Assembly: GCF_002075285.3 (NCBI RefSeq)
Contig: NZ_CP021983.2
Span: 90,001 to 122,000 of the forward strand
DNA from: Halomicronema hongdechloris C2206
Lineage (GTDB): Bacteria > Cyanobacteriota > Cyanobacteriia > Phormidesmidales > Phormidesmidaceae
DNA: 32,000 bases
Direction: 5' to 3'
The stretch's first letter is position 1. Each line of letters opens with the position of its first letter. Made by a program: the position numbers and the translations under genes. The notes beneath the pieces are model-generated. The model was not told the DNA's origin and searched no databases. It saw only the letters and a program-made list of their open reading frames with translations. Below are positions 876 to 31,835 of the stretch, one piece after another.

Positions 876-909
876 TATCTCATCTATCGCTCATGGATTA
901 TGCGGTCGG

Positions 910-1686: not shown

Positions 1687-2126
1687 AGGGTTCCTTGCTG
1701 CAATCAACTCACGGTGGATGACCTGATGGGGGATGGGCCATCTTCTTCGGGAGAACGCGAGGATTGCGATGTACAGTAATGGCGACCACCTAAACGTTGA
1801 GTGCGATCGCATATCAGCCGACAGCATTCAGTTCTCAGGGGCAACCATATTACTACCTAGTCATCTGACTGACCTATATATCACTCTAGAGTAATTAAGC
1901 AGGATCGCCTAGAGGGCTGTAGCGAATTTTACCAATGCTTCACAAAGTTTTCCGTGTTCTCCCCAGACTCTGTCGTCTGGAGAACCGTTCGGCTTTGTGG
2001 CTAGGATGGGAGCTCACAGGTAAAACCACTCATGTGCCGGGAGACAGGGGCGCTAAAGCCTTGCCGCAGGGCATGGGAATACATCGTGGCCTTGACGAAT
2101 AGGGCCTCGAGCCCAAATCTTCTCGG

Positions 2127-3065: not shown

Positions 3066-3246
3066 GGGGAGGAATCGGGCGAGGGGAACGGCTGAGGATC
3101 AGATGCACGCTGTTGTTTCAGCTTATCGCCAACTGCCTAAGGATGGGTTAGCCCTTAGGATTTTAAGAGAAACCCTGACCCATTGTCCCCATCGGTTGTC
3201 AGGACCGAGTCTGCAGTGACTCCTTGTCTTCCTGCTAAGCATACCT

Positions 3247-5439
3247 ATGAACCCGATCACTCAGCTCAAGACCAAACTCCCCGCCCCCCTGCAGCGCCTA
3301 GGCGACCTCGCCTACAACTACTGGTGGAGTTGGACCGCCGACCATCTCTCCCTATTTAGCACCATCGATCCCACCATCTGGCAGGCCTGCCGCCACAACC
3401 CTGTGGCCCTGCTGGAGTCGGTCTCCTATGAACGGCTCTCTCAGATTGCCGAAAATCCTGAATACCTAAAGCGGCTTAAGACCCTAGCCCGGCAATTCGA
3501 CAGCTACATGACCGAGCGCGACACCTGGGCCAGTCGGGTGGCGCCGCAGCTCTCCCACGAGAAGCCTGTGGCTTACTTCTGTGTAGAATTCGGCTTGCAC
3601 GAGTCCCTGCCCATCTATGCCGGTGGCTTGGGTGTCTTGGCCGGAGATCACCTAAAATCGGCCTCGGATCTAGGGGTGCCCATGGTGGGGGTAGGCTTGC
3701 TCTATCGCCAGGGTTATTTTCGCCAACGCCTCAACCGCAGCGGCTGGCAGGAAGACTATTACGACGATAACGACTTCGAGCACATGCCGCTGGAGCTGGT
3801 GCGGGACGAGTTTGGCCAACCAGTCACCATCAAGGTACGGATTCGGCAGCGCACCGTACGAATTCAGGTCTGGAAGGTGCGGGTCGGTCGGGTTGAGCTC
3901 TATTTGTTGGATGCTGACCGCAGCGACAATGATCCCATTGACCGCCGGCTGACCGGCCATCTCTACGGCGGCAATCGGGAAACTCGCATCGCCCAAAAGC
4001 TGCTGCTCGGGGTGGGCGGCGTCTGCATGCTGGAGGCTCTAGAGATTGAGCCTTCTATCTATCATCTCAACGAAGGCCACGCCGCCTTTGCCCTACTGGA
4101 AGTGGCCCGCTACGAGACCGAACGCACCGGGGAAAACTTCTTCGAAGTAGAGCCACGGCTGCGCAAGCAAGTCATCTATACCAGCCACACACCGGTGCCG
4201 ACAGGGTTTCAGACCTTCTCAGCCGATATGATGGATTCCTTCTTCGCCGACTATTGGCCCAAACTGGGCCTCTCTCGGGAGGAATTTCTATCCCTAGGGG
4301 CCCGTCGCCTGGGGGATCCTTGGGAGCCCTTCAGCATGGAAGTGTTGGCCCTGCGCCTCAGCCGTGCCGCCAATGGCGTCAGCCGTCGTCACGGGGAGGT
4401 GTCCCGGGAAATGTGGCATATTCTGTATCCAGAGTGTGAAACTGCTGAGCAGGTGCCCATCAGCCACATCACCAATGGGGTCCACGCCCGCACCTGGACG
4501 GCGCCCTTGCTGAATGATCTCTACGGTGAGTATCTGGGCCAGAGTTGGGCCCGGGAAATGGGGAACACCGAGATCTGGACTCGAATTAATGACATCCCCG
4601 ATGAGGATCTGTGGCAACGTCACTGCATCTTGAAGGAACGGCTGATCGCCCACACTCGCGCCCGAGTGCGTCAGGCTCGTCTCGGCCGTGGCGAGGCCGC
4701 CGATGATATTGCGGCGGTAGAACGCTTGTTGGATCCCGACACCCTGACCATTGGCTTTGCCCGTCGCTTTAGTCCATACAAGCGCGGGGGACTGCTGTTT
4801 CGAGATCTACACCGGGCCATCCGGATTCTGTCCAATCGGCGGCGGCCGATTCAGCTGATCTTTGCTGGCAAGGCCCATCCTGCCGATGATGAGGGCAAGC
4901 GGATCATTCAACGGCTGATGGAGTGGTGCCGCCATCCCTCCCTACGTGATCGCATCGCCTTCATCGAAGACTATGACATCTATACCGCCAAACTCATGGT
5001 GCATGGAGTGGATGTCTGGCTGAGCACCCCCCGGCGCTCTCTAGAGGCCTCCGGCACCAGTGGTCAAAAGGTCTGCCTCAACGGCGGCATCAACTGTGGT
5101 GTGCTCGATGGCTGGTGGGCCGAGGCCTATCAGGAGGGACCCAATGGCCGTGGGCTCAATGGTTGGGCCATTCGCAAAGAGGCCGATACTCGAGAGCAGG
5201 AGATCCAAGATCAAAGCGATGCCGAGACTCTCTATGAGCTCCTAGAAGAGCAGATGGCTCCCCTGTTTTATCAACGGGACCGGCACGGTCTTCCCCGGGG
5301 CTGGATCACCCTGATGAAGGCCTCCATCCGCATGGGAGCCCCCTGTTTCAATACTGACCGCATGGTGGCGGAGTATGTCACCCGGCTCTACTTCCCAGAG
5401 ATAGCCATCCCCAACGAGCCAGTACTGGCCAGCGCCTGA
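3247..5439 (+). CDS. glgP: alpha-glucan phosphorylase (GT35, short bacterial GlgP type)
   Basis: 730-aa ORF. Family hallmarks are YFCVEFGLHESLPIYAGGLGVLAGDHLKSASDLGVPMVGVGLLYRQGYFRQ, ITNGVHARTW and EASGTSGQK (the PLP lysine). Confidence 0.85.
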   Translation: MNPITQLKTKLPAPLQRLGDLAYNYWWSWTADHLSLFSTIDPTIWQACRHNPVALLESVSYERLSQIAENPEYLKRLKTLARQFDSYMTERDTWASRVAPQLSHEKPVAYFCVEFGLHESLPIYAGGLGVLAGDHLKSASDLGVPMVGVGLLYRQGYFRQRLNRSGWQEDYYDDNDFEHMPLELVRDEFGQPVTIKVRIRQRTVRIQVWKVRVGRVELYLLDADRSDNDPIDRRLTGHLYGGNRETRIAQKLLLGVGGVCMLEALEIEPSIYHLNEGHAAFALLEVARYETERTGENFFEVEPRLRKQVIYTSHTPVPTGFQTFSADMMDSFFADYWPKLGLSREEFLSLGARRLGDPWEPFSMEVLALRLSRAANGVSRRHGEVSREMWHILYPECETAEQVPISHITNGVHARTWTAPLLNDLYGEYLGQSWAREMGNTEIWTRINDIPDEDLWQRHCILKERLIAHTRARVRQARLGRGEAADDIAAVERLLDPDTLTIGFARRFSPYKRGGLLFRDLHRAIRILSNRRRPIQLIFAGKAHPADDEGKRIIQRLMEWCRHPSLRDRIAFIEDYDIYTAKLMVHGVDVWLSTPRRSLEASGTSGQKVCLNGGINCGVLDGWWAEAYQEGPNGRGLNGWAIRKEADTREQEIQDQSDAETLYELLEEQMAPLFYQRDRHGLPRGWITLMKASIRMGAPCFNTDRMVAEYVTRLYFPEIAIPNEPVLASA

Positions 5440-5443
5440 GGGA

Positions 5444-5527
5444 GAGCGGAGAGCGGAGAGTAAAGAGTAAAGAGTAAAGAGTAAAGAGTGACGAGTAAAG
5501 AGTAAAGAGTGACGAGTGACGAGTGGA
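5444..5527. repeat. heptanucleotide tandem array (12 units, STRR-like)
   Basis: Direct reading gives gagcgga x2, gagtaaa x4, gagtgac, gagtaaa x2, gagtgac x2, gagtgga. The array starts 5 nt after the glgP stop. Confidence 0.9.
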
Positions 5528-5651
5528 TGGGTGGATGGGACAGGGTAGGGGGCGCGGTTGCCGCGCCCAATAGAGAAAACCGGCTACCGTGCCGATGCGA
5601 CGCGATCTTGAACGACCAACCGACAGGTCCTTCCGCAGGGTCCAAGGCGGT

Positions 5652-5723
5652 GATTCGACTACGCTCATCACAAGTAGTTCGACTGCGTTGCTCCTGCAAG
5701 TTCGACTTCGCTCACTACGAGCG
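5652..5723. repeat. three degenerate ~23-24-nt direct repeats sharing the core TTCGACTNCG
   Basis: TTCGACT occurs at 5654, 5678 and 5701 (spacing 24 and 23 nt). Units 1 and 3 also share CGCTCA. Confidence 0.6.
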
Positions 5724-5896
5724 GAGCCGCTTTGCGAACACCACAAGCGGTTCGTCCTGGTCGTAGGAGTCCGAGGGGGAGCGAGATCCCCTCGGGTGAG
5801 CCCCCCGAGCTACCCGATTAAGCGCAGTCTTATCGAGGTTCATGGCCATTGATCGACATGCCCTGATAAAACGACGACGAACCAAAAGGAGCAACG

Positions 5897-6646
5897 ATGA
5901 TTGCTTGGCAGGTTGACTGCTACCGCCGTCCTCTGGCAACTCCGGAAGGACAGCCTCTGTGGGAACTACTAATATGTGAAGCGGCTGATAAGACCCTGGG
6001 GTTTACCTATGGGGTGATGGTCCCCCAGTCTGAGGTCACTGCCGAGTGGCTACGCCATCATCTCCAGGTAGCCCTAGACAGGGCTCCTCGTCCCCCCGAG
6101 GAAATTCAGGTGTTTCGCCCTCAATGCCTGAGTTTGGTAGAAGCGGCGGCGGCTCCCTTGGCAATTTTGGTGGTGGCTAGCCGCCATACCCCTACCCTGA
6201 AGCAGTGGTTACAGCAGCGGGCGGCCTGGTACCCTAGCCTGGACCATTACACCGGCGAGTCGTACGACTCTTTGGCATTAGATCGGCCGCCGCCCAATCC
6301 CCTGCCTGAATCACTGTGGGGAGAGCAGTGGCGATTTGCCGCCATTACCGCCGGGGAATTTGAGCGCACCTTTCCCCACGAGCCCATCCCCATTCGCCAG
6401 ATGCCGCCAGAGCAACTGCCACAACGGCTGGGAGTGGCCAGTACTACCCCTATCCCTGGCGTGGTGATCGATGGGGGACGGCAATCAATGCCCCTAGCGC
6501 GCTGGTTACAATCGGTGCAGCCGGTATTCCTAGAGGTGATCGCCGGCCCCCCCCATGGCTTGGTGCTGGAGGCAGGATTGGTGGATCGTTGGATTCTCAC
6601 TACCTTCGCGGATCCACAGGTGGCTGAAGCGGCCCAAACCTTTTGA
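5897..6646 (+). CDS. Tab2/ATAB2-family RNA-binding protein (DUF1092)
   Basis: The N-terminus WQVDCYRRPLATPEGQPLWELLICE fits the family signature as I recall it (W.LDFY.RP ... W.LLIC). AAGGAG lies 5 nt upstream of the ATG. Confidence 0.6.
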   Translation: MIAWQVDCYRRPLATPEGQPLWELLICEAADKTLGFTYGVMVPQSEVTAEWLRHHLQVALDRAPRPPEEIQVFRPQCLSLVEAAAAPLAILVVASRHTPTLKQWLQQRAAWYPSLDHYTGESYDSLALDRPPPNPLPESLWGEQWRFAAITAGEFERTFPHEPIPIRQMPPEQLPQRLGVASTTPIPGVVIDGGRQSMPLARWLQSVQPVFLEVIAGPPHGLVLEAGLVDRWILTTFADPQVAEAAQTF

Positions 6647-6908
6647 ACAACGACAGGCCGACAGCCAAGGACTACACTTCCTCTTGGTGCGTCCGGATGA
6701 CACCGGCATGACCTATACGGGCCTGTGGCTATTGCAGCGGTGACTAAGTGAGTGACCATTAGGTTTCGCCACCGATTAACGGTAACATCAGCTTTAACGT
6801 TTCTTAAAGCTTTCTCAACTAGCCTGGCTCCACTAGGAAATGGGTTGAGGAGAAGGCTACGGTAGGTGGAGAGCTCGCTCTCAGCCTGCCACCTCTTTAA
6901 CCCTGTCT

Positions 6909-8690
6909 ATGACTGCTGATATTGTCCTGACCCTAGCGATTGCGGCTCTGGCCCTGCTGCTGTTTATGCTGGAATGGCTGCCAGCTGATATCACTGGCAT
7001 GGTAGTCATGGTAACGCTGATGCTGTTGGGGCAGGTGACGCCGCGGAAGGGTTTCTGGGCTTCAGCAATCCAGCCACCTCTCACGGTGATGGCCATGTTT
7101 ATTCTCAGTGCAGGCATTGCCCGCACCGGGGCGCTGCAACGGTTAAACCAAGCCCTAATCGCCTGGTCGGGGAAGCAGGCCCAAACAGATGCTGCCTTGG
7201 GGTGCGATCCAGGACCATTATCGGGAGTAATCAAAAACCCGCCGTCCTCTCAGTGTTGCTGGCCGACGGTAGAAGATCTCTGCCGCCGCCAGGGCTTCTC
7301 GGCCTCGCGGCTACTGATGCCCTGGTCCTTCATCACCATCTTGGGAGGCATGTTGACGGTGGTGGGCACCTCCACCACGGTGCTAGCCAGTGGCCTTTCG
7401 GGCCAGTTGGGCTACGGGGAATTTGACCTATTGTGTTGTGACGGCCCTGGGGGCGATTGCCTTGGCATTGGCCTGGCCTATCTGATCTTTGTCCCCGCCG
7501 CTGCAGACCATAAGCAGTCCCATACCTCCTTCAGCCAGGAGTATGACCTAAGGGGATATGTCAGTGAAGTGGTGATTACGCCGCGCTCCAGCCTGGTGGG
7601 ACAGACCCTGCGGGCTAGTGAATTGCAGCGGCGCTTTGATCTAGATGTGTTAGAGCTGATTCACAATGAATCGCTTCGCCCAGCCCTAGCAGACAAGGTG
7701 TTGTCGGCGGGGGATATTTTGCTGGTGCGCTGTGGCCGCGGCGACTTGCTGAAGATTCGCGATAGCGAAGGGCTGGAGATCTTGCCAGACGTTCAATTTG
7801 GGCAAAAGTCCTGGCAGGCGGATCTGAGTTCCGGCGAGGAGGGCATCGCCGAGGTCTTGGTGCTGGCCAACTCCAACCTGATTGGCTCGACGCTGAAAGA
7901 AATGCGCTTCCGCCAGCGCTACAACGTCACGGTGCTAGCAATCCGGCGGGGGGAGGAACTGGTGCGGGACCGCCTGGGCAAGGTGCCGCTGCGGTTTGGG
8001 GACCTATTGTTGGTGCAGGGGCCGAAGCAAAGTTTTGTGGGATTGCAGACCAGCCGCGATCTGCTGGTGCTGGAGCAACGGGATCTGGAAACGTTGCGAT
8101 CGCAAAAAGCCCCCATCGCCATTTTGATCGGCCTAGGGGTAGTGGTCTTGGCGGCTCTGAATCAAGTGCCGATCCTAGTGGCGGCCCTAACCGGCAGTGT
8201 GTTGATGGTGCTCAGCGGTTGTCTGAAACCAGGGGAACTCTACCAATCCATCCGCTGGGACGTGATCTTTCTGCTAGCCAGCCTGATTCCCCTGGGCATT
8301 TCCATGGAAACCTCAGGGGCTACCGACTGGTTGGCCACTAACCTAGTCGCCCTAGGCCAGCACCTCTCCCCCCATGGACTGCTGATGGTCCTGTTTGTCC
8401 TCACGACAGTACTCACCGGCATTCTCTCCAACACCGCCGCCGTCATCCTGTTGCTACCCGTGGGAGTACAGATCGCCGAAACCCTTGACCTCAATCCCTT
8501 TACCGTCATGGCCGTGATTACCTTCGCCGCCTCCAACAGCTTCATGACCCCGATTGGCTATCAAACCAACACCATGGTCTACGGAGCCGGCGGGTATCGC
8601 TTTTTAGACTTTGTCAGAGTCGGTGGTCCCCTGTGCCTAGTGATGGCACTGGTGATACCTTCCCTGGCGGGCTGGCTCTATGGTCTGTAG
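6909..8690 (+). CDS. SLC13/DASS (CitMHS-type) permease with two central TrkA-C (RCK_C) domains; possibly damaged (see findings)
   Basis: Hydrophobic N- and C-terminal halves carry LLMPWSFITILGGMLTVVGTSTTVLASG and FMTPIGYQTNTMVYGAGGY. Two soluble repeats lie between them (VITPRSSLVGQTLRASEL ... DILLVRC and VLVLANSNLIGSTLKEMRF ... DLLLVQG). Confidence 0.8.
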   Translation: MTADIVLTLAIAALALLLFMLEWLPADITGMVVMVTLMLLGQVTPRKGFWASAIQPPLTVMAMFILSAGIARTGALQRLNQALIAWSGKQAQTDAALGCDPGPLSGVIKNPPSSQCCWPTVEDLCRRQGFSASRLLMPWSFITILGGMLTVVGTSTTVLASGLSGQLGYGEFDLLCCDGPGGDCLGIGLAYLIFVPAAADHKQSHTSFSQEYDLRGYVSEVVITPRSSLVGQTLRASELQRRFDLDVLELIHNESLRPALADKVLSAGDILLVRCGRGDLLKIRDSEGLEILPDVQFGQKSWQADLSSGEEGIAEVLVLANSNLIGSTLKEMRFRQRYNVTVLAIRRGEELVRDRLGKVPLRFGDLLLVQGPKQSFVGLQTSRDLLVLEQRDLETLRSQKAPIAILIGLGVVVLAALNQVPILVAALTGSVLMVLSGCLKPGELYQSIRWDVIFLLASLIPLGISMETSGATDWLATNLVALGQHLSPHGLLMVLFVLTTVLTGILSNTAAVILLLPVGVQIAETLDLNPFTVMAVITFAASNSFMTPIGYQTNTMVYGAGGYRFLDFVRVGGPLCLVMALVIPSLAGWLYGL

Positions 8691-9445: not shown

Positions 9446-10960
9446 TCACTCTGCCCAATGCTTGGCCCGCTCCACGGCTTTTTGCCAGAAGGCGAAGTTG
9501 GCCTGGGCTTGGGCAGTCCCATCCCCGGGTTCAAACACCCGATCGGTGGGACGGTTGGTGACTAGGGCCCGATAGTCGTTCCAGAAGCCAACGGCTAAGC
9601 CAGCAGCGAAGGCGGCCCCCTGAGCTGTTACATCCAGCACGGTCGGGCGTTCTACGGGAATGCCCAGCGCATCGGCTTGGAATTGCATCAAAAAGTTGTT
9701 GCGGCAGGCCCCGCCGTCGACCACTAGTTGCTTGATCGGGGTGCCAGCATCTTGGTTGACGGCATCGACCACTTCTTTAACCTCGTAAGCAATGGCTTCT
9801 AGCACAGCCCGCACCATGTGTTCCCGCTGAGCGGCACTGGTGATGCCCAGGAAGGCGCCCCGGGCGCTCATATCCCAGTGGGGGGCTCCCAGGCCACTCA
9901 AGGCCGGCACAAAATAAAGGCCCCCGTTGTCAGAGACTTTCTCGGCTAAGGACTCGGTATCGGCGGCACTGGTGATGACGCGAATGCCATCCCGTAGCCA
10001 CTGGATGCAGGACCCGGCGGTGAACATGCTGCCTTCTAGGGCATAGCCGATATGGGGAGGTCCCTGATCTGTGGCCTCGGACCAGGCAATGGTAGTGAGC
10101 AATTGGTTTTGCGATCGCGCGATTTCATCCCCCGTGTGAGAGACCAAGAAAGCGCCGGTGCCATAGGTGCACTTGAGTAACCCCGGTCGATCACAACCAT
10201 GGCCATAGAGGGCCGCCTGCTGGTCGCCAAAGATAGCCATAATTGGGATCTCGGCCCCAGTGATGCCAGGATCGGTATGGCCAAACAAGCCTAGGCTGGG
10301 CCGAATAATCGGCATCATATGGGGAGGAATATTGAATAGGGCCAACAGAGACTCATCCCAATCCCCCGTCTCGATATTCAGCAGCATAGTGCGGCTGGCG
10401 TTACTGTGATCGGTGGCATGTACCTGTCGCCCGGTTAAATTCCATAACACCCAACTATCGACAGTACCGGCCAGCACCCGGTTAAAATCTACAGGCGGAT
10501 CAGTCTCTTCCTTAACCCGATCCAATAGCCAGGCCAACTTCGTCGCCGAAAAATAGGCATCTAGTACCAGACCCGTGCGTTGGGCAATTTCCTCCGCCTT
10601 GCCCATATCCCGCAATTGATTACACATGGGAGCCGTACGCCGGTCTTGCCAAACGATGGCATTCTGCAAAGGCCGTCCGGTATCACTGTCCCAGAGTAAA
10701 CAGGTTTCCCGTTGCACCGTCAACCCAATCGCCGCCAATTCACCAGGCTGGATTTCAGCATTGCCAATGGCCGCCCCAATGGCCCAATCGATGTCTTGCC
10801 AAATTTCCCGGGGATCGTGTTCGACCCAGCCCGGTTGAGGATAGTACTGAGTCAATTCCTTGTACGCCTGACCGGCGATGTTACCATCCCGGTCGAAGAT
10901 AATGGCCCGATTGCCAGTGGTGCCCAAATCGAGGGCCATGATGTAGTTAGCGGAGGTCAT
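9446..10960 (-). CDS. glpK: glycerol kinase
   Basis: 504 aa. ALDLGTTGNRAIIFD, GWVEHDPREIW, FGDQQAALYG and VDGGACRNNFLMQFQADALG. Confidence 0.95.
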   Translation of the reverse strand: MTSANYIMALDLGTTGNRAIIFDRDGNIAGQAYKELTQYYPQPGWVEHDPREIWQDIDWAIGAAIGNAEIQPGELAAIGLTVQRETCLLWDSDTGRPLQNAIVWQDRRTAPMCNQLRDMGKAEEIAQRTGLVLDAYFSATKLAWLLDRVKEETDPPVDFNRVLAGTVDSWVLWNLTGRQVHATDHSNASRTMLLNIETGDWDESLLALFNIPPHMMPIIRPSLGLFGHTDPGITGAEIPIMAIFGDQQAALYGHGCDRPGLLKCTYGTGAFLVSHTGDEIARSQNQLLTTIAWSEATDQGPPHIGYALEGSMFTAGSCIQWLRDGIRVITSAADTESLAEKVSDNGGLYFVPALSGLGAPHWDMSARGAFLGITSAAQREHMVRAVLEAIAYEVKEVVDAVNQDAGTPIKQLVVDGGACRNNFLMQFQADALGIPVERPTVLDVTAQGAAFAAGLAVGFWNDYRALVTNRPTDRVFEPGDGTAQAQANFAFWQKAVERAKHWAE

Positions 10961-11133
10961 CGCTGGTGCTTATGGTCACAATAGGAGGTGCGGCGAGTCC
11001 TCACTGCTGAGCGCAGACCACTGAATCACCCAGGACGATACAGCATCCCAACCTATTCGCGGTCCCTCTGCGGACCCACCCTCTTCCACTTATCGCAGAC
11101 GACCAGGCTGAATTACAAGCGATATCTATGGAA

Positions 11134-11913
11134 CTACAAGATCTGTGACAAGAACTGCTTGGTGCGACCTTCCTGAGGAGCCTTGAAGAATTCGTTCGGG
11201 GTATTCTCTTCAACCAGCATGCCTGCATCCATAAGTGCCACGCGGTCAGCGACTTCTCGGGCAAAGCCGACCTCGTGGGTAACACAGACCATAGTCATGC
11301 CGCTGCCAGCCAAATTACGCATCACATCCAGCACCTCCCGCACCATTTCCGGATCCAGGGCAGAGGTGGGTTCATCGAAGAGCATGATCTTAGGCTGCAT
11401 GGCTAGAGATCTGGCGATGGCGACTCGCTGCTGTTGTCCCCCCGAGAGCTGCCCTGGAAATTTATGGGCCTGTTCTAAAATGCCAACTCGATCCAACAGT
11501 TGCATCGCCACATCTTGAGCCTTGGCCTTAGGCCAGCGCCGCACCCATATAGGAGCTAAGGTGACGTTTTGCAAAACGGTTAGGTGGGGAAACAGATTGA
11601 ATTGCTGGAATACCATGCCCACTTCCCGGCGAATGGCCTCGATGTTCTTCAGGTCGTGGGAGAGGAAGATGCCGTCTATTGCAATGGCCCCCTTTTGATA
11701 GGCCTCTAAGGCATTGAAGGTGCGAATAAAGGTAGACTTACCGGAGCCAGATGGCCCCATGATGACTACCACTTCCCCTCGGTTAACCGTTAGAGTCACG
11801 CCCTTGAGCACGTGAAAACCGTTGTCGTACCACTTCTCGACGTTACGGGCGACGATCATGGGATGAGCCTCTCGGGACTCAACAGTCGCTGACTCTGTCT
11901 GGAACTGGGCCAT
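11134..11913 (-). CDS. polar amino-acid ABC transporter ATP-binding protein (GlnQ/BgtA-like)
   Basis: Walker [10 protein letters not shown], signature [16 protein letters not shown], Walker [14 protein letters not shown]-loop VCVTHE. An alternative ATG start at 11859 ([11 protein letters not shown]) is equally plausible. Confidence 0.9.
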
Positions 11914-12337
11914 TAACGTGCGCTCTCTACCGACTCTTCGTGACTGCTATAGAATGGGATAGCAGGGAAGTCACCTGTTGGCCACTGCTAGGGCCAGTCT
12001 CCTCCCATTCTGCCTCAGCATAGGTGACTTCAGCGAGGTAGGACTGTTAACTGTTACACGGCGGACTCAATCAGAGGTGATTGACAAGCCGCCTAAACAG
12101 TAGTCAGAGCAAGGTTTTCAGAAACACCGCGAACACTCCTGCAAGATCGCTAGAAGCCTTGAGAACACTTGCCTTGACGGCTCTTTAAGATTTCCTTTGC
12201 CAATGAGCTCTCAGTAGGCTTGGGAAGCGGCTTGCCCTGTATGTTTTCAGACCAGCTACCCCCTAGCATCGGCCATATCCCTTGGGTCACAGGCAAAGCG
12301 ACCCCAAGAGTAAGGAGTATCGACGTTCCAGGAACTC

Positions 12338-13417
12338 CTAGCTCTTGGGAACTAACGCTAGGGCCTGCTGCACCACCTCTGGACCGGCACCTGGTTTGCA
12401 GCTGTACTTACTCAGGTGGCGTTTCCAGGCACGACTGCCGGGTTGGCCAGCGAATAGCATCAGCATATGGCGAGTAATTTTGTGAAGCTTGAGTCCTTGC
12501 CCAGTCCAATGGTCAATATAGGGCAGCATTGCCGTGACCACCTGATGGCGGCTGGGTGGTAGCTGGGATGGAGTGAAGAGATCTTGTTCCAACTGGGCAA
12601 ACAAGTAGGGATTGTCATAGGCGGCCCGACCGATCATGACCGCATCAACCCACTGTAAGTGCTGATGGACTTGCTCTGGGGAGCGAATGCCGCCGTTGAT
12701 TTCAATCTGCAACTGGGGAAAGTCTTGCTTGAGACGATAGATATCACCGTAGCGGAGGGGGGGCACGTCTCGGTTTTCTTTGGGACTCAGTCCCTGTAAC
12801 CAGGCCTTGCGAGCATGGACGCTGAAATGGCGGCACCCGGTCTCGGCCACCACTTGCACAAAGTGGGCCATGTCTTCATAGCGGTCGAGGTGATCGATGC
12901 CGATACGGTGTTTGACGCTGACGGGTAGAGGCGAGGCCACCATCATGGCGGTGACGCAGTCGGCTACCTGTTGGGGGTGAGCCATCAGGCAGGCACCAAA
13001 GTTGCCGCTTTGCACCCGATCGCTGGGGCAACCAACATTGAGATTAATCCCGTCGTATCCCCAGTCGGCGGCAATGCGAGCACACTCAGCCAGTAGGGCC
13101 GGGTCATCGCCGCCGATCTGCAGGATCAAGGGTTTTTCGGCCGGGGAAAAGCCTAATAGAGTGTCCCGATGGCCATGATAGATTGCTGGGGCCGTCACCA
13201 TCTCGGTGTAGAGCAGGGTATGTCGGGTGATCTGCCGCATGAAGTAGCGATAGTGGCGATCAGTGCGATCCATCATGGGCGCAATGCTCAGGGGATAACC
13301 CCTGGGGGCCGTCTGTAGCTCCCTATTTAGGGTGTCAATGGTTGTGGCCGGTATCCCGGGCATGGGTCGTTGGTGTATCTCGGCTAATACTCTAGGGTAG
13401 CAAGCCAACCCAGGCAT
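12338..13417 (-). CDS. dusA: tRNA-dihydrouridine(20/20a) synthase
   Basis: LSIAPMMDRTDRHYRYFMRQITRHTLLYTEMV, INLNVGCPSDRVQSGNFGACLM and HARKAWLQGLSPKENRDVPPLRY closely parallel E. coli DusA. Alternative start ATG at 13363. Confidence 0.9.
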   Translation of the reverse strand: MPGLACYPRVLAEIHQRPMPGIPATTIDTLNRELQTAPRGYPLSIAPMMDRTDRHYRYFMRQITRHTLLYTEMVTAPAIYHGHRDTLLGFSPAEKPLILQIGGDDPALLAECARIAADWGYDGINLNVGCPSDRVQSGNFGACLMAHPQQVADCVTAMMVASPLPVSVKHRIGIDHLDRYEDMAHFVQVVAETGCRHFSVHARKAWLQGLSPKENRDVPPLRYGDIYRLKQDFPQLQIEINGGIRSPEQVHQHLQWVDAVMIGRAAYDNPYLFAQLEQDLFTPSQLPPSRHQVVTAMLPYIDHWTGQGLKLHKITRHMLMLFAGQPGSRAWKRHLSKYSCKPGAGPEVVQQALALVPKS

Positions 13418-13531
13418 ACCGGCTGCATCGATGCAGGCGTCAGCCAGTGACAGATTGCGTTTTATTGAAGAGATTGGGGGGATCCGGGCAGATCTTTTAG
13501 AATTGCCAGTATTCTATCGGGGGCATGGTCT

Positions 13532-23179: not shown

Positions 23180-23207
23180 GAGCTAAGTTGCCAGAGCTAA
23201 GTTGCCA
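23179..23207. repeat. perfect 14-nt tandem duplication (gagctaagttgcca x2)
   Basis: Direct reading. It spans the 17-nt gap between the convergent stops of the TPR gene (taa 23177-23179) and the PTPS gene (cta 23197-23199). Confidence 0.95.
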
Positions 23208-24066
23208 TGGCAGGGGCTGCCACCCTGTTCTGGTCAGCAAGAGATGCCGAGGAAGAGCAGTATACCTCCACCGAGTTATTGGGACTCTCTATCAGCTTTA
23301 CCTTATGAAGTCTGGCACCAGTTGCCTGAATGGGCTGGCGCAGACGATCCCGAATATGCACAGCAATGTTCTCAGCCGTAGGCACAACCTCGGCAAAATA
23401 GGGGACATCTTTATTGAGAAACGTGTGATCGAAGGGCTCAACCACATGGGTATCAATGGCAACCTGTAACTCTCCCAGGTCAGCAATCATACCCGTGCGG
23501 GAATCAATTTCCCCGCACACCGTGACCTCCAGATGATAGTTGTGGCCATGGCCGTGGGGACGGGCGCACTTACCATAGATGGCGCAGTTTTCTTCATAGC
23601 TCAGCTGTGGCAGTGCTAACCGATGGGCGGCACTGAAGTGAGTACTAATGGTGAGATAGGCTTCCATGGAATCTCCTGTATAGTCAGCCCAAAGTTCTGG
23701 ATGTTCGTACAGGCGAATATTTACCAATGGCAGGTACGATACCAGGCGGTGCCAGAGGACATAGGCCATATATTCGGTAGTGGGCAGCGTCTGCTGAAAC
23801 TCCGGCCATACATCGTTGAGATAGGCAAAATCAAGCTGGCTAGTCACCTCTCGCTTGATTACCGTCTTGACATCAGACAGGTTGAGCACCATGCCATACT
23901 CATCCAACTGCCCTGCCATAGAAACATACAGCACATAATTGTGACCATGGCCCGGTGCCTTGGTACAGAGCCCAAACTGGTCAGCATTGTCAGCCGCGCT
24001 TAATTCAGGCAGCCAATATCGATGGCTAGCGGAAAATTGAGCCCGGCGATGGATGATACAGGTCAT
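23197..24066 (-). CDS. tandem-domain 6-pyruvoyl-tetrahydropterin synthase / QueD-family protein
   Basis: There are two complete PTPS modules: FSASHRYW...CTKAPGHGHNY...LDFAYLND and FSAAHRLA...KCARPHGHGHNY...FDHTFLNKD...PTAENIA. I chose the ATG at 24064-24066 (MTCIIHRR). Upstream alternatives are the ATG at 24174 and the TTG at 24180. Confidence 0.8.
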   Translation of the reverse strand: MTCIIHRRAQFSASHRYWLPELSAADNADQFGLCTKAPGHGHNYVLYVSMAGQLDEYGMVLNLSDVKTVIKREVTSQLDFAYLNDVWPEFQQTLPTTEYMAYVLWHRLVSYLPLVNIRLYEHPELWADYTGDSMEAYLTISTHFSAAHRLALPQLSYEENCAIYGKCARPHGHGHNYHLEVTVCGEIDSRTGMIADLGELQVAIDTHVVEPFDHTFLNKDVPYFAEVVPTAENIAVHIRDRLRQPIQATGARLHKVKLIESPNNSVEVYCSSSASLADQNRVAAPAMAT

Positions 24067-24345
24067 GGGAATACTATGAACAAGTTCTACGTTGCATGAA
24101 TCTGTGTTAACTGCTCCCACTCCAGGATAACGGAAAGTTTTAGAGGCTGACTCCCCTAACAGAGGCGCTTTCATCCCCAATTAGAAGGCGCCCTAAAGTA
24201 AGGCTAATTTTGGGTAAGGCCAGAATTAATTTTTGATACAGATTTCTCTGAGGTTAGTGCAGTGAGTCCTGCCAAATACTCTCATACTGGAAGTTTCAGC
24301 TATTTTAAAGTTAATCTCATGAGTTGCTGACAAAGGAGCAAAACA

Positions 24346-24359
24346 GTAAAATAAGATAC
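24346..24359. promoter_or_regulatory. NtcA-type box GTA-N8-TAC
   Basis: GTAaaataagaTAC is a perfect match to the NtcA consensus. It lies in the AT-rich divergent promoter region, 13 nt upstream of the riboswitch P1. Confidence 0.5.
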
Positions 24360-24371
24360 AGAATAGTAAAT

Positions 24372-24458
24372 CGTTCATCCTACCTAAGGTCGCATGTCAA
24401 GGTCGCATGTCGATGCTAAGGGGGACGGAAGTAGGGACTACTCCCGAAGGAACGCGCC
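24372..24458 (+). promoter_or_regulatory. glutamine riboswitch (glnA RNA motif)
   Basis: aaatCGTTCATCC ... GGGGGACGGAAGTAGGGactactCCCGAAGGAACGcgcc. P1 pairs CGTTC (24372-24376) with GAACG (24450-24454). The conserved ACGGAAGUAGG and GAAGGAACGC blocks are present. The P3 hairpin is GGGA-cuac-UCCC. It sits in the 5' leader of a DUF4278 gene, the usual cyanobacterial context. Confidence 0.75.
24386..24411. repeat. perfect 13-nt tandem duplication (aaggtcgcatgtc x2) inside the riboswitch P2 region
   Basis: Direct reading: 24386-24398 is identical to 24399-24411. Confidence 0.95.
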
Positions 24459-26285: not shown

Positions 26286-26627
26286 GGAAATAGGGCTGTG
26301 GAGGATGGCTGAGATAGGAATATCATTGCCAGGTAACTGAGGCCAAGGGGGATTTGTCAATGCCCCAACTGTCTCGGCAACGGGGTTCGGATTCCTGTAC
26401 CAGGCCCCTTGGCATAGGTCCCCTTCTCTTAGCTATGATAGATGCCAGTTCTACTGCGGCGTTGGTGACTGCCAACACTGTTTTACGATCTATGTTTGTT
26501 CGATAAGGGAACTGAGATGCTGCGGTGGCAGTAAACCGGGCTTGTACCCGGAAACTTAAAGCCGTAGCCACGGTGCCCACCTGGTTTTACCAGGTCGAAA
26601 ACTGAGGTAAGACGGCGTCGCGGTGAA

Positions 26628-29327
26628 CTAATTCAAGCTTTCCCCATGGCTAAGCTGATGAGAGGGGTGATGGCCGTTCTGGGGTGCTGAGAGATCACGA
26701 CTGGGGGGATTTTTTTGCCACAGAGGAATCTCTACGACGAATTGGCTACCCCGCCCCGGTTTAGAGCGGCAGCGCAGTCGGCCATGGTGTTGATTGACGA
26801 CGATCTGGTAAGTAATTGACATGCCTAAGCCAGTCCCTTTTCCCACGGGCTTGGTGGTGAAAAACGGATCGAGGATGCGCTGTTGAGTCTCTTCTGAAAT
26901 GCCGATGCCATTGTCAGAAATGGTAATTTCTACTCTGTTTGCATCTGGCAGTGCGGTTGCGATCGCAATGGTTGGTATCCACCGCGGCGACGGCTGGGCC
27001 TGCCATTTTTCCTCTAAGGCATCTATGGCATTGCTCAGTAGATTCATGAATACCTGATTTAGCTGGCTGACATAGCACTCTATGGCAGGTAAGGGCTCGT
27101 AGTGCCTTCGCACCAAGATGGCCGGGCGTTCTCCGTGGGCTTTGAGGCGACTGCCCAGAATCGTCAGAGTACTTTCAATGCTGTCGCGAATGTCGACCAA
27201 CTTCAGCTCGGTGCCACCCTGCCGCGAGAAGGTCCGCAGCGACTGGACGATATCGCGAATGCGCTCGGTGCCACCACGCACCGATTTCAGTAACTTGGGT
27301 AAATCTTCCAGGAGATACTCTAGCTCAATCTTCTGTTCAAGGTGCTGTACGGCTGGCGGGGCAGGGTCAATACTGTGCTGATAACTCTGCAGCAGCGTCA
27401 ACAGGTCATCAACATAGTGTTCAGCATGGATGAGATTGCCATAGATATAGTTGACCGGATTATTGATTTCATGGGCTAGACCCGACACTAACTGGCCTAA
27501 ACTCGACATTTTCTCGCTTTGCACCAGCTGTATCTGAGCGGTCTGTAGGTCTTGTAAGGCTTGCTCAAGCTGACGGGTTTTGCGGTCTTTTTCGGCCGCT
27601 TCTTGGATAGCTTCTTCGGCTTGTTTGCGGAGAGTAATATCTCGCAGGATCACCGTGTAGAGCGTCTCGTGGCGAGTTTGCATGGTGGCCACGGTGACCT
27701 CAACCGGAAATGAACTACCGCTGCGGCGACGACCGACGACTTCGTAGGGGTTGCCATCGGCACTGGCGGCAGCCAAAAACCGCGCCATTGTCTCTTGGCA
27801 GTCGGGGGCGGTCTCCTCTATGGACAGCAGCAAGGTCAGAGGTTGACCGCAGAGTTGTGCCTCTGCAATGCCAAATAGCTTCCGCACGGAAGGGTTGGCC
27901 GTTTGGACGGTGAGAGAATGGGGCGATACGGTCAAGATGGCCTCGATGGCCGATTGTACGATGGCCTCGGTATGGGCGACGGCTTCCTCCAGGGCAGCCA
28001 TGACGCGGTTATAGCGGGCGGCGATTTGGCCCACCGGAGTAAAGGGTTCTGCCGGGCTACGCAGGCTCAGATCGCCACTGCGTTCTTGGCGGCGCATGAC
28101 AGCGATCAGATCGACTAGGTCGCTGGTGGCTCCATGCTCAGCTACGTTGAGGCCGATATGCTCTTGCCGACGCCCCACCCGCAGAGGATACCAGCGATTC
28201 AGGGCCGTCAGTAATGGATAGGTGAGGCCAAAGGCCCAAAGGGCGGCGATGACGATGCCTAGGCATTGAATTTGCAGCTGCTCCAACCGAGTTAACCCGG
28301 TATTGAGCAGGGTCAGGTCGCCAAATAAAGCAACCGCTAGGGTGCCCCAAATACCGGCACTGAGATGGACTGGAATGGCGCCTACGACATCGTCGATGTG
28401 CCATCGCTGCAGTAGGCGTTCGGTGGCTAACATGAGGCCGCTGCCAAGGCTACCGATGAGTATGGCGTCGAAGGCGGTGACGGCATGACAGTTGGCGGTA
28501 ATGGCCACCAGGCCAGCCAGGGAACCATTCATCACCGCGGTGACGGCTATGCGTTGTCCCTGAAGTAATCCCAAGAGAATCGGGGTGACTAAGCCGGCGG
28601 CTGCGGCCAGGAGAGTATTGGCAATAATGCCCGGTACGGTGTCATCTAAGGCGAGGACACTGCCACCGTTGAAGCCAAACCAGCCCAGCCACAGTAGTAG
28701 AGTGCCTAGGGACGCCAGGGGTAAATCGTAGCCAAACAGTTGACGGTTGCCTCGCTTGCAGGAAAAACGACCGATGCGCGGCCCCAAAATCAGGACTGAG
28801 GCTAAGGCAACCCAGCCGCCGATACTGTGAACCACGGTGGAGCCGGCAAAATCAATGAAGCCTAAGTGTCCTAACCAGCCGGTAGTCGCGTTGCGCTCTA
28901 AACCTCCCCAGGCCCAATGGCCAAAGACGGGATATACAATCCCGGAAATCAAGATGGCGATGAGAACATAGCTGCTGAAGCGCATGCGTTCTGCTACGGC
29001 ACCGGAGACAATGGTGACGGCGGTGCTGCAGAACATGGCTTGAAACAGGAAGAAAACGCCCATCCAAACCTGGCCCTGGCCCACATCGGGAGCCCAGTGA
29101 CTGGTGCCGATCCAGCCGTCGTAGGAGCTGCCAAACATGAGGCCATAGCCAAAGCCCCAAAAACACAGCACCGATAATCCCAGATCGGCAATATTCTTGA
29201 TGACGACGTTGATATTGTGTTTGCTGCGGGTGGATCCGGCCTCTAGGCAGAGGAAACCAGCCTGCATCAGAAATACCAGGCTGGCGCAGACAATGACCCA
29301 GAGGATATCGATGAGGTCTTTAGTCAC
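26628..29327 (-). CDS. ammonium transporter (Amt) domain fused to PAS and histidine kinase (HisKA + HATPase_c)
   Basis: aa 1-400 are Amt: LMQAGFLCLEAG, FIDFAGSTVVHSIGG (D159, H167), GPRIGRF, FGFNGGS, AIPVHLSAGIWG (H321). aa ~455-565 are PAS-like. LAHEINNPVNY carries the candidate phospho-His619. DNGIGI and GKGTGLGMSI are the G1/G2 boxes. The start codon is GTG. Confidence 0.9.
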   Translation of the reverse strand: MTKDLIDILWVIVCASLVFLMQAGFLCLEAGSTRSKHNINVVIKNIADLGLSVLCFWGFGYGLMFGSSYDGWIGTSHWAPDVGQGQVWMGVFFLFQAMFCSTAVTIVSGAVAERMRFSSYVLIAILISGIVYPVFGHWAWGGLERNATTGWLGHLGFIDFAGSTVVHSIGGWVALASVLILGPRIGRFSCKRGNRQLFGYDLPLASLGTLLLWLGWFGFNGGSVLALDDTVPGIIANTLLAAAAGLVTPILLGLLQGQRIAVTAVMNGSLAGLVAITANCHAVTAFDAILIGSLGSGLMLATERLLQRWHIDDVVGAIPVHLSAGIWGTLAVALFGDLTLLNTGLTRLEQLQIQCLGIVIAALWAFGLTYPLLTALNRWYPLRVGRRQEHIGLNVAEHGATSDLVDLIAVMRRQERSGDLSLRSPAEPFTPVGQIAARYNRVMAALEEAVAHTEAIVQSAIEAILTVSPHSLTVQTANPSVRKLFGIAEAQLCGQPLTLLLSIEETAPDCQETMARFLAAASADGNPYEVVGRRRSGSSFPVEVTVATMQTRHETLYTVILRDITLRKQAEEAIQEAAEKDRKTRQLEQALQDLQTAQIQLVQSEKMSSLGQLVSGLAHEINNPVNYIYGNLIHAEHYVDDLLTLLQSYQHSIDPAPPAVQHLEQKIELEYLLEDLPKLLKSVRGGTERIRDIVQSLRTFSRQGGTELKLVDIRDSIESTLTILGSRLKAHGERPAILVRRHYEPLPAIECYVSQLNQVFMNLLSNAIDALEEKWQAQPSPRWIPTIAIATALPDANRVEITISDNGIGISEETQQRILDPFFTTKPVGKGTGLGMSITYQIVVNQHHGRLRCRSKPGRGSQFVVEIPLWQKNPPSRDLSAPQNGHHPSHQLSHGESLN

Positions 29328-29443
29328 AGGGAACGGGATATATGCTGTAGCAAGCGCTAGCTAGCCATCTAGACAAAATGGCTCTGCCAGCACTTTACAG
29401 GAGGTCACCGGGGAAATCCGACAAGTTTATGCAAACTCTTCCC

Positions 29444-31513
29444 TTAGCGTCGGGCGGTATTGCCGTAGTTCAACAGTCGTTCGATGGTAGTGAGGCGATG
29501 ACGCCAGGTTTGCAGTCGATAGTCGTTGCTGACGGTACGCAGGGCCATGGTATGGCCTAGGGTGGCGCGCAGGCTGATGAGTTGCGATCGCACCTGGTTG
29601 AGTCGGCGAGGGGACGGCTGCTGGGCCAGGGCTGCTAAATCTTGCTCCAATTGATGAACACCCGCGATCCAATCGGCCTCACTTGCGGGGGCTAACCAGA
29701 GGTGACCCTGGTTAGATAACCAGCTCCACTCTCCCTTGAGGATGCGGTATCGTTCTAAAGCCGCTTGATAAGGCTGTTGTTGCGGTGGCGAGGTCGCCGT
29801 TTGGGTTTGGCTCAAGAGCCTGTGCACGGGTCCCGTCATCAGGTTCTCGGCGGCAAACAAGGCATAGCCGGCGGCCGGCAGATCTCGCAGGGCCTGAATC
29901 TGATCGAAGGCAGCGGCTTCAGACAGGGCCAGCAGCCGAATCCCTGGAATCACTAGAGTCGACTCATAGTCATGGTGCAGCAACCAGGGCGTCACCAAGC
30001 TTTCTAGGCGGTTAGCGTCTTCGGCATAACTCATGAGCACGATCCAATCGACCCACCCCTGCTCGGCCCAATGCTCCCAGTCCTGCTGGATCTTAAGCAG
30101 ACGTTCTCGTTCTGGCTTGGCGAAGGTCGCCGCCGATAGTAGCAGCTCTGGCCGTTGTCGCTGCACCAGTCGGGAGACTTCAGCCACAAAAGAACTCACC
30201 TGCTGAATCCGAAATTCAGTCCAGCGCTCCCACAGATAGAGCTGGCGCTGCCGTTCCGGTCCTGAGAGATCTGACTCTAAACGGGGGGATAGCTCTACCG
30301 GGTCGATGCCAGTCATAGCCTTAAATCGCTGCCTGGCTGCCTGGCCATAGCCAAAGGTGCGATCGGCGCTGGGGTCTTGAAACGGATAGCGAATATAGTC
30401 CAGCTGCAATCCATCGACCTCATACTGGGTGATGATTTCCGCAATCAACCGCAGCAGATAGTTGCGCACTTCCGGATTGGCAGGATCTAAAAATGGCTTA
30501 GTTTGTCCCCGAGGAATTAACTCACCTCGGTTATCCCGGCCAGCCCAATCAGGATGCAGGCTCAGCACCGGCCCTGGGTAGTCTGTCGGCAGATTGAGAA
30601 TCCGATTGTGAAGCTGGTTGCCAGCAGCAAAGGTCCAGATCCAGGCATGGAGTTCCATGTCGCGCTCATGGGCCAGCTCCACGGCCGCTGCTAAGGGATC
30701 CCAGTGGCGGCTCAGGGGGTTCTGGGTCGGAGCCACCCGGCTGGGATAAATGGGATACCCCGCGTTGACTGTCTCGAAGAATACGGTATTGAAGCCTGCC
30801 GCCGCCAAGCGATCGAACACGTTTGCCAGACGCTGGGGAGAGCCAGCTCGCACAATGGTGCCTCGATCCAACCAAACCGCTCGGATTTCGGGCTGGTTCA
30901 GGGGGCGATCCATGGGGAAGTTATTCCAGATGGCTTGGCGGGTTGCCAACCAGCGCTGTCGGGCGGCCTGGTATTCCTGGTGTTCGATCAGGGTGGACCA
31001 TTCCGCCAGCAGCTGACGGCCCTGGGCTAATGCCGGATGCAATAGCGGTGAGGTCAGATCGACTTTGCCGGCAGAGGCGGTCAATTGCTCAGTCCCGGGC
31101 GCCAAGGTCAGCTCTGACGCCTGACTCGAGGCCCGAGCCAGCAGTAAGGCACTCTCGAAGCGCCCCATGAGTTGCTCTAGCTCCTGACGCATGGCCAAGG
31201 CCAGGTAGGGGCTAATGGGTTGCTCCCCCGGTAGCACGGTGAGACCAGGTGGGGCAATGGCTTCGGCAGGATCGGCTATGGCCTGAGATACTCGCACACT
31301 CTGCCCGGAGGAATTGTCTACGGCAGTTGCTGCCGGGATATCTGTCACTGGGGCAGCGGGGGAGGACGGGGGGACGGAACTGGGCGACGGGGAGTCTTGC
31401 TCGGCTCGGATGGCCCCTGGCCATAGCAGTACTAGGGCGATACCCAGGCTGCTGGTGATCAGCTGTTTGACCGTGAGACCCCACTGGGGGGAGGTGATAT
31501 GAACCGTTGCCAT
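29444..31513 (-). CDS. secreted glycoside-hydrolase-like GHL10 (DUF187, YngK-like) protein
   Basis: IRAVWLDRG, FNTVFFETVNAGYPIYPS, ELHAWIWTF and EVDGLQLDYIRYPF are typical of the GHL10 TIM-barrel family. There is a signal-like N-terminus from the ATG at 31511-31513; the ORF-track TTG start is at 31525. Confidence 0.75.
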   Translation of the reverse strand: MATVHITSPQWGLTVKQLITSSLGIALVLLWPGAIRAEQDSPSPSSVPPSSPAAPVTDIPAATAVDNSSGQSVRVSQAIADPAEAIAPPGLTVLPGEQPISPYLALAMRQELEQLMGRFESALLLARASSQASELTLAPGTEQLTASAGKVDLTSPLLHPALAQGRQLLAEWSTLIEHQEYQAARQRWLATRQAIWNNFPMDRPLNQPEIRAVWLDRGTIVRAGSPQRLANVFDRLAAAGFNTVFFETVNAGYPIYPSRVAPTQNPLSRHWDPLAAAVELAHERDMELHAWIWTFAAGNQLHNRILNLPTDYPGPVLSLHPDWAGRDNRGELIPRGQTKPFLDPANPEVRNYLLRLIAEIITQYEVDGLQLDYIRYPFQDPSADRTFGYGQAARQRFKAMTGIDPVELSPRLESDLSGPERQRQLYLWERWTEFRIQQVSSFVAEVSRLVQRQRPELLLSAATFAKPERERLLKIQQDWEHWAEQGWVDWIVLMSYAEDANRLESLVTPWLLHHDYESTLVIPGIRLLALSEAAAFDQIQALRDLPAAGYALFAAENLMTGPVHRLLSQTQTATSPPQQQPYQAALERYRILKGEWSWLSNQGHLWLAPASEADWIAGVHQLEQDLAALAQQPSPRRLNQVRSQLISLRATLGHTMALRTVSNDYRLQTWRHRLTTIERLLNYGNTARR

Positions 31514-31835
31514 GAATGAAGTCAATGAAGCAGTACCAAGTCTTCGGTAGGTCTAGCCCCTGAAAGCACTCAGTGCATCTTACACTGGCGTATCTTGCTA
31601 TTTCTCTGGAGAGAGAAGCCCTATGCCGGGATGCGATCGCAACCGCCACTAATAGTAGGTGGTGTCCAAACGCTATCTCTCAATTCAGCCTGCTCGTTAG
31701 CCAACCCGGAGAAAACCCCTTGCTGACAGAGTTCACAGGGACTTCATCCCATGGCATCTCTCCGATTTGATTGAATATAGCCTGACCTAGGCCTGAGATT
31801 GTCGTAACCAGAGGGCTAACCCACCGCCGCGATCG

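Follow-up and report, generated by a model that had tools for sequence, protein, structure and literature searches.

An intact Amt-histidine kinase fusion

The DNA analysed here, referred to as the window, was a stretch of 32,000 nucleotides (nt) from the cyanobacterium Halomicronema hongdechloris C2206 (Nodosilineales). A gene on its minus strand encoded an ammonium transporter (Amt) domain followed in the same polypeptide by a two-helix linker, a PAS domain and a histidine kinase. It lay between a GHL10-family gene upstream and a DUF58 gene downstream, as the preliminary description of this sequence had reported. The analysis suggested that the product is probably an ammonium receptor in the membrane, belonging to the AmR class (sensor Amt) and signalling through a histidine kinase. 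The modules of the protein and the other features of the locus are listed in Table 1, together with related proteins from other phyla.

Table 1. Features of the window and architectures of four related loci. Positions are those of the window, except in the last four rows, where they are those of the relatives' own loci; aa, amino acids; MAG, metagenome-assembled genome.
Feature	Coordinates	Strand	Basis or content
Whole putative sensor-kinase gene (Amt / HAMP-like linker / PAS / DHp / CA)	26628..29327	-	899 aa, GTG start, TAG stop
Amt domain, residues 9-401, 11 predicted transmembrane helices	28125..29303	-	Pfam Ammonium_transp, residue mapping, conservation, model
HAMP-like two-helix linker, residues 402-459	27951..28124	-	alignment to Sd-Amt1, conservation, predicted helices
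PAS domain, residues 460-568	27624..27950	-	PAS_9 1.2e-13, PAS 1.2e-09, predicted fold
Signalling helix and DHp hairpin, residues 569-702	27222..27623	-	partial HisKA match, invariant H-box residues, predicted helices
Catalytic ATP-binding (CA) domain, residues 703-870	26718..27221	-	HATPase_c 1e-23, motif positions, conservation
C-terminal tail (residues 871-899) and stop codon	26628..26717	-	mean identity 13% among orthologues, predicted disorder
GHL10-family gene, directly upstream, same strand, 116-nt gap	29444..31525	-	GHL10 2.2e-32
6S RNA gene	26448-26630	+	Rfam RF00013, 106.6 bits, full length
Glutamine riboswitch	24370-24458		
Putatively riboswitch-controlled open reading frame, 142 aa	24507-24935	+	DUF4278 residues 1-57, PirA module 90-135
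Polyangiaceae MAG (L002)			Amt-PAS-HisKA-HATPase-REC-REC
Bradymonadales MAG (L003)	218-7817		Amt-PAS-HisKA-HATPase-REC-REC in phosphorelay cluster
Latescibacterota (L004)	9530-13487		Amt-PAS hybrid kinase, open reading frame split in two
Neiella holothuriorum (L005)			Amt-PAS-GGDEF-EAL

The product of this open reading frame (ORF) corresponded to ASC69172.1/WP_088428799.1 and had the same length as the deposited protein, which was named "ammonium transporter" by NCBI and "histidine kinase" by UniRef. The GTG codon was the earliest possible start downstream of an in-frame TAG and was consistent with the conserved N-terminus of the orthologues. The preliminary description had proposed a single 899-aa ORF with a full Amt channel, and the pore residues were found at the positions it cited (D159, H167, H321, GPRIGRF at 182 and FGFNGG at 217). 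Its order of a PAS module, a HisKA domain with H619 in LAHEINNP, and an ATPase domain with intact G1 (805-809) and G2 (831-835) boxes was also correct. Hidden Markov models from Pfam and NCBIfam recognized the Amt, PAS and HATPase_c domains, and HisKA was matched partially at a score slightly below the threshold.

Among the matches listed in a homology search were 120 clusters, 117 of which were 840-950 aa long and aligned nearly end to end with 48-96% identity. All named matches were cyanobacterial and mostly filamentous, and the hosts included Leptolyngbya PCC 6406 and PCC 7375, Lyngbya PCC 8106, Trichocoleus, Spirulina, Phormidesmis, and Hormoscilla. An alignment of 118 sequences of the family was used for all conservation figures given here. 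In the closest relative (L085), the kinase protein was 96% identical and its DNA 88%, and the protein of the adjacent GHL10 gene was only 81% identical, which was consistent with strong purifying selection on the kinase gene. Because at least 117 orthologues aligned end to end with the same architecture, a frameshift or assembly artefact was excluded, and the two separate genes that the preliminary description had considered as a counter-case were not borne out. The fusion gene is real and intact.

Putative receptor site and signalling modules

Residues 9-401 matched the Pfam family PF00909 (Ammonium_transp) over profile positions 1-397 of 399 with an E-value of 3e-114 and 382.3 bits against a cut-off of 23.2, and the NCBIfam model TIGR00836 ("amt") gave 387.8 bits against a curated cut-off of 343.3. 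The AlphaFold model, with a mean pLDDT of 80.3, contained 11 long helices between residues 5 and 379. The pore residues W140, S223, F99, F219, D159, H167, and H321 mapped onto those of Sd-Amt1 from Shewanella denitrificans and Ks-Amt5 from Candidatus Kuenenia stuttgartiensis, the two fused Amt proteins for which ammonium-dependent output and mechanism have been published (Pfluger et al. 2018, PMC5764959, for Ks-Amt5; PMC11152129 for Sd-Amt1). Loss of pore residues on alignment, which the preliminary description had named as evidence that would count against its proposal, was not seen, and all of these residues were retained.

The receptor site described for this class consists of two internal NH4+ positions, N1 and N2, which are reached beyond the twin histidines (Pfluger et al. 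2024, PMC11152129). In Sd-Amt1, the ligands of N1/N2 are Gln-22, Glu-29, Asn-45, Asp-48, Thr-104, and Ser-107; the switch is formed by Lys-44 and Tyr-119, the side path is opened by Phe-25, and the exit is made narrow by Asn-269 (PMC11152129). Exactly this set was present in the Halomicronema protein, with Q22, E29, N45, D48, T105, and S108 at N1/N2, F25 at the side path, K44 and Y120 as the switch pair, and N267 at the exit. The residues of the receptor site and the pore and the catalytic boxes of the kinase were invariant or nearly so in the 118 sequences; K44 and Y120 were each found in 118/118 and N267 in 117/118.

The relationship of the Amt domain to other Amts was analysed with a neighbour-joining tree of 88 Amt domains and 100 bootstraps. 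Eleven Amt-PAS proteins and Sd-Amt1 formed a clade in 100/100 bootstraps, and a 13-member clade that also included Ks-Amt5 was recovered in 63/100. All 13 members of this clade were fused proteins, and 0/75 of the other sampled Amts fell inside it. This fused-only clade is better evidence for a dedicated sensor lineage than the residues of the receptor site. The Amt domain also scored much higher with the two proven receptors (444 bits for Sd-Amt1 and 311 bits for Ks-Amt5) than with the solved transporters (169 bits for Archaeoglobus fulgidus Amt1 and ~109 bits for Escherichia coli AmtB). These scores, the clade, and the retained N1/N2 and switch residues agreed with the preliminary description, which had proposed a likely ammonium sensor of the Ks-Amt5 kind. 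An exclusive cyanobacterial clade was not supported (28/100 bootstraps), and because of this low value no claim is made for a vertical or a horizontal origin.

The linker after the Amt domain aligned to residues ~385-447 of Sd-Amt1, with 19/63 positions identical. The corresponding post-Amt region of Sd-Amt1 is described by its authors as a HAMP domain composed of a short helix and a long helix (PMC11152129), and the linker here was predicted to form a short helix (403-417), a loop, and a long helix (431-459) continuing into the PAS domain. No match to the Pfam HAMP family (PF00672) was found in the linker at E <= 0.01. The name "HAMP-like" is used because the linker was homologous to the HAMP region of Sd-Amt1 yet gave no Pfam HAMP match. 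Its conservation among the orthologues was about that of the Amt domain (mean identity 61% vs 66%), and the PAS domain, with 47%, was the lowest among the folded modules.

The PAS matches covered residues ~452-565, with 51.7 bits for PAS_9 at 463-565 (cut-off 27) and 38.7 bits for PAS (cut-off 22.6), and a PAS fold with a five-stranded sheet and flanking helices was predicted for residues 462-563. No recognizable cofactor motif, such as the NCRFLQ of LOV domains, was found in the PAS sequence. The PAS domain is taken to be mainly a module for transmission and dimerization. In a fold search, the cytoplasmic half of the protein resembled PAS-kinase proteins of the FixL/YF1 type.

The HisKA match was partial (residues 610-632), with 25.2 bits against a cut-off of 26.9. 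This sub-threshold score was attributed to a long insertion in the DHp domain; orthologues, such as the 64%-identical protein at L001, passed the HisKA model. The DHp helical hairpin was predicted at residues 583-650 and 658-702. The phospho-acceptor H619, encoded by the codon at 27471-27473, was located within the H-box SLGQLVSGLAHEINNP, and H619, E620, N623, and P624 were invariant in the 118 sequences. The sequence H-E-x-x-N is the phosphatase motif of HisKA proteins. The HATPase_c match spanned residues 754-869 (1e-23, 84.3 bits), and the motifs of the CA domain were conserved in the orthologues, including N766 in the N-box, D805, G807, and G809 in G1, F822 and F823 in the F-box, and G831, G833, and G835 in G2. 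In the C-terminal tail, pLDDT was <50 at residues 875-899. No Response_reg match was found within the kinase protein, which was non-hybrid, unlike the proteins at L002 and L003.

These features are consistent with a mechanism similar to that published for Sd-Amt1. External NH4+ would be recruited at the periplasmic vestibule by W140 and S223 and would move on through the Phe gate formed by F99 and F219 and past the twin histidines H167 and H321. From there it would be diverted by way of F25 and E29 into N1/N2, surrounded by E29, N45, D48, T105, and S108, and would not leave through the cytoplasmic exit, which is narrowed by N267. Upon occupancy of these positions, E29 would turn away from K44, Y120 would flip, and the cytoplasmic end of the Amt domain would shift. 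The shift would then be relayed by the HAMP-like linker (402-459), the PAS domain, and the long signalling helix to the DHp domain, where the ratio of H619 autophosphorylation to phosphatase activity would be altered; the H-E-x-x-N motif suggests a bifunctional kinase. The final acceptor of the phosphoryl group would be a response regulator whose gene is unlinked to that of the kinase. A trimeric sensor would have to drive a dimeric transducer in this process, as was proposed for Sd-Amt1. Control of the kinase by ammonium and low net transport are inferred, as would be any assignment of the sign of the response, the regulator, and its targets.

Several observations weighed against assignment of the protein to the receptor class. 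The strict published AmR signature, Q-X6-E-X15-N-X2-D-[F/T]-X54-60-T-X2-[S/T], failed at one position, where L49 replaced F/T; the spacing and all other positions matched. Position 49 was variable across the family (F 55, L 41, A 10, V 10, and I 1), and the Phe at this position is not a ligand in Sd-Amt1 (PMC11152129). The deviation appeared to reflect a signature that is loose, having been drawn from two structures, rather than loss of the site. A second point came from a comparison set of 80 loci obtained by a genome-contig scan driven largely by the generic Amt motif WLGWFGFN; the set consisted mostly of stand-alone Amts and included only one cyanobacterial orthologue. Most of the stand-alone Amts in this set (410-440 aa) carried the same eleven-residue pattern, and the "cluster 2" of Amts with N1/N2 defined by the authors includes genuine transporters such as plant AMT1 (PMC11152129). 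Moreover, every pore residue required for transport was intact. No cognate regulator was recognized in the window, the tree sample was biased towards relatives of the query and was analysed with a simple distance method, the PAS domain could bring a second input, and a literature search found no paper on any cyanobacterial member.

The N1/N2 signature was thus rejected as a discriminator between sensors and transporters owing to its frequency in stand-alone Amts, and for the same reason these residues were not used as evidence for the absence of transport. The retained pore residues, which the preliminary description had pointed out, do not separate a sensor from a transporter either. Judged from the sequence, the residues indicate a capacity for receptor-type ammonium binding and are no proof of sensing without transport.

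These considerations bear most directly on a transceptor, a protein that would transport ammonium at a useful rate in addition to signalling, with a kinase that reports flux through the pore and not static binding. The complete set of pore residues fits such a protein, as does the N1/N2 set shared with stand-alone Amts and the characterized plant AMT1, and the authors of the Sd-Amt1 study noted that the exit Asn "may not fully prevent transport" (PMC11152129). However, both characterized fused relatives, Ks-Amt5 and Sd-Amt1, mainly bind ammonium rather than translocate it, the Amt domain here fell within a clade of fused sensors only, and the exit residue N267 was nearly invariant. A transceptor was therefore regarded as unlikely, and a receptor in which ammonium binding would control the kinase is still preferred.

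It was considered highly improbable that sensing resides in the PAS domain, with a metabolite inside the cell, redox state, or light as the signal and the Amt domain serving only as a membrane anchor and a scaffold for oligomerization. PAS domains commonly bind ligands, and both the match and the predicted fold were convincing for a PAS domain here. Nevertheless, it was the least conserved folded module, well below the Amt domain, and it showed no cofactor motif, whereas the invariance of the pore and N1/N2 residues across 118 orthologues would make no sense for a mere anchor. Signalling in the reverse direction, in which the PAS-kinase part would gate the Amt channel in the manner of the autoregulatory C-terminal regions of plant AMT1 and fungal Mep2, was given very little credence. 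Transport by Amt/Mep proteins is known to be regulated by their C-terminal regions; however, the catalytic set of the kinase was complete and conserved, including the phospho-acceptor His, and relatives with added receivers in phosphorelay operons pointed to outward signalling. Finally, a gene that is decaying or was joined from two by a frameshift or assembly error had a negligible probability, since apart from the slightly low HisKA score nothing was found in its favour and the deposited length, the end-to-end orthologues, and the purifying selection all spoke against it.

Genomic context and neighbouring loci

No receiver domain was found in the window, either in ORFs of at least 100 aa or, with a receiver profile derived from relatives, in six-frame segments of at least 50 aa, in line with the earlier remark that the window held no receiver gene. 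In the eleven cyanobacterial contexts analysed besides the window, a stand-alone receiver was not adjacent to the kinase gene in most cases. Orphan status was thus the rule for the cyanobacterial family and no peculiarity of this locus. A GHL10 gene was found directly upstream on the same strand in two of these contexts, at 703-2715 in L085, the locus of the 96% relative, and at 7685-9850 in L088, the locus of a 67% relative; nothing else recurred in the eleven contexts. The gaps between the GHL10 and kinase genes were 68-150 nt, including that of the window, and no terminator-like site was found on the minus strand in the gap of the window. The two genes are possibly co-transcribed, and their association is uncertain.

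At L001, a gene for an OmpR-family regulator (REC and Trans_reg_C) was located at 7602-8306 on the plus strand, 1.7 kb upstream of the kinase gene, and a divergent ORF of 370 aa lay between the two genes. It was the only DNA-binding regulator near a sampled cyanobacterial member, and its proximity may be coincidental. In Lyngbya sp. PCC 8106 (L083, 3097-9752), three other kinase genes were found directly upstream, encoding GAF-PAS-histidine kinase, REC-HATPase, and dCache-HAMP-histidine kinase proteins. Their kinase cores shared 41-53% identity with the core of the window protein; these tandem paralogous kinases could converge on one regulator.

On the other side of the kinase gene, the 6S RNA gene lay between the DUF58 gene and the kinase gene in convergent orientation, and its 3' end overlapped the kinase TAG by 3 nt. 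An ORF of 85 aa at 26323-26580 on the minus strand was antisense to the 6S RNA gene and was probably spurious. Neither the 6S RNA nor a glutamine riboswitch was found near the orthologous gene at the loci of seven relatives, so both adjacencies were regarded as local.

The preliminary description had placed a glutamine-riboswitch/gifB locus 1.7 kb from the kinase gene. The distance was confirmed, with 1693 nt between the kinase gene and the riboswitch-controlled ORF, and the identification as gifB was not, because the ORF encoded a protein with DUF4278 and a PirA module instead. The PirA module was complete (NCBIfam PirA equivalog, 69.6 bits against a cut-off of 50), and 233 homologues were found, the listed ones being 133-152 aa long and many of them named PirA. 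Riboswitch-linked DUF4278 genes were treated as IF17/gifB-like by Klahn et al. 2018, and doubt that the long PirA forms are real was expressed by Bolay et al. 2021. The sequence at this locus suggests that the glutamine riboswitch controls a long PII-interacting regulator of the PirA type.

A perfect NtcA box, GTAAAATAAGATAC, was present ahead of the 142-aa ORF at 24346-24359. No perfect NtcA box was found upstream of the kinase gene, upstream of the GHL10 gene, or anywhere beyond 24359 in the window, and one site with a single mismatch (29347-29360) was within chance expectation. The lack of a perfect box ahead of the kinase gene is at most weakly compatible with the NtcA/PII-independent route put forward in the preliminary description, and neither supports nor refutes it. 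The local concentration of nitrogen-status sensors suggested in the preliminary description was conserved in 0/7 of the relatives' loci and is most likely coincidental. Divergent to the riboswitch locus, a 327-aa ORF at 23197-24180 on the minus strand encoded two tandem 6-pyruvoyl-tetrahydropterin synthase (PTPS) domains (Pfam, E 4.3e-63).

Significance and comparison with known systems

Cyanobacteria are thought to read their nitrogen status internally, via 2-oxoglutarate with NtcA, PII, and PipX. As a tentative proposal, on which our doubts outweigh our confidence, many filamentous cyanobacteria may possess a dedicated receptor for external ammonium that acts through an unlinked regulator and independently of this network, perhaps on behaviour such as motility and biofilm formation or on nitrogen assimilation genes, and the Amt-HAMP-like-PAS unit may be a portable input module that has been rewired across phyla. 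Should the kinase prove responsive to ammonium, cyanobacteria would have a direct sensor of external ammonium, and no such sensor of theirs was found described in the literature searched. The question of how an Amt trimer acts on a dimeric transducer could then also be addressed in a third architecture. On the practical side, hundreds of sequences deposited under the plain name "ammonium transporter" probably function in signalling, and metabolic reconstructions should leave them out when uptake capacity is assessed.

Both the class and the way it works had been described before, two members have been characterized in depth, and hundreds of orthologues are present in public databases. A review of 2009, as cited by Pfluger et al., is credited with the recognition that sensor-Amt fusions are widespread. 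Nothing mechanistically unexpected emerged from the analysis; with the class established, its importance is limited and the result would not surprise a specialist. The gene is nevertheless worth an annotation note and is a reasonable target for experiments.

The canonical transporters E. coli AmtB and A. fulgidus Amt1 were only 25-30% identical to the Amt domain. They have the 11-helix fold and the selectivity and pore residues in common with it, but they lack the N1/N2 ligands and a fused transducer, carry Tyr and Ser at a wide exit, and are usually paired with GlnK (PMC11152129).

The same Amt-linker-PAS cassette was found in other phyla, with 50-58% identity in the Amt domain and identical receptor-site residues. 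These relatives were hybrid kinases or GGDEF-EAL proteins (Table 1), whereas the cyanobacterial proteins were non-hybrid and genomically orphan. In the Bradymonadales locus, a single-domain receiver ended 7 nt before the fusion gene, which was followed by genes for REC-HisKA-HATPase and Hpt-REC-GGDEF proteins and another receiver. This context suggests that ammonium input is fed into cyclic di-GMP (c-di-GMP) synthesis by a multistep relay. In the Latescibacterota locus, a single-domain receiver ended 70 nt upstream of the hybrid-kinase gene. The latter consisted of two overlapping ORFs, Amt-PAS at 9995-12034 and PAS-kinase-REC at 11790-13490, and the split may have arisen from a frameshift introduced by long-read assembly. 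Since the relatives join the cassette to adjacent receivers or to GGDEF-EAL, the comparison, at the level of sequence, shows the cassette as a putative input module for phosphorelays and c-di-GMP signalling. The PAS domain between channel and kinase, credited to the cyanobacterial fusion in the preliminary description, is an addition relative to Ks-Amt5 and not a cyanobacterial novelty, as it is also present in Polyangiaceae, Bradymonadales, and Neiella.

Ks-Amt5 (kuste3690, PDB 6EU6) was 43% identical in the Amt domain, with a TM-score of 0.92. It resembles the Halomicronema protein in being an ammonium sensor in which an Amt domain with the N1/N2 ligands in common is joined to a C-terminal histidine kinase, and it is likewise without an identified cognate response regulator. 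In contrast to the protein described here, Ks-Amt5 has neither a PAS nor a HAMP domain, its kinase is directly coupled to the Amt domain (PMC5764959), and it is 679 aa long instead of 899 aa. Arg, Asn, and Thr occupy the positions of K44, Y120, and N267. The kinase core also differed, with the HisKA-type H-box HEINNP and a long DHp insertion in the Halomicronema protein.

The closest solved protein was Sd-Amt1 (PDB 8QJ3/8QJ4/8QPF), with 47% identity and a TM-score of 0.95. The two proteins have identical N1/N2 ligands, switch Lys and Tyr, F25, and exit Asn, share a homologous two-helix linker, and were grouped in the clade with 100/100 bootstraps. They differ in that the HAMP domain of Sd-Amt1 is followed directly by a GGDEF diguanylate cyclase, while the linker here is followed by a PAS domain and a histidine kinase, and in that position 49 is Phe in Sd-Amt1 and Leu here. 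The Halomicronema protein thus joins an Sd-Amt1-type linker to a Ks-Amt5-like kinase output and has a PAS domain and a long signalling helix between the two.

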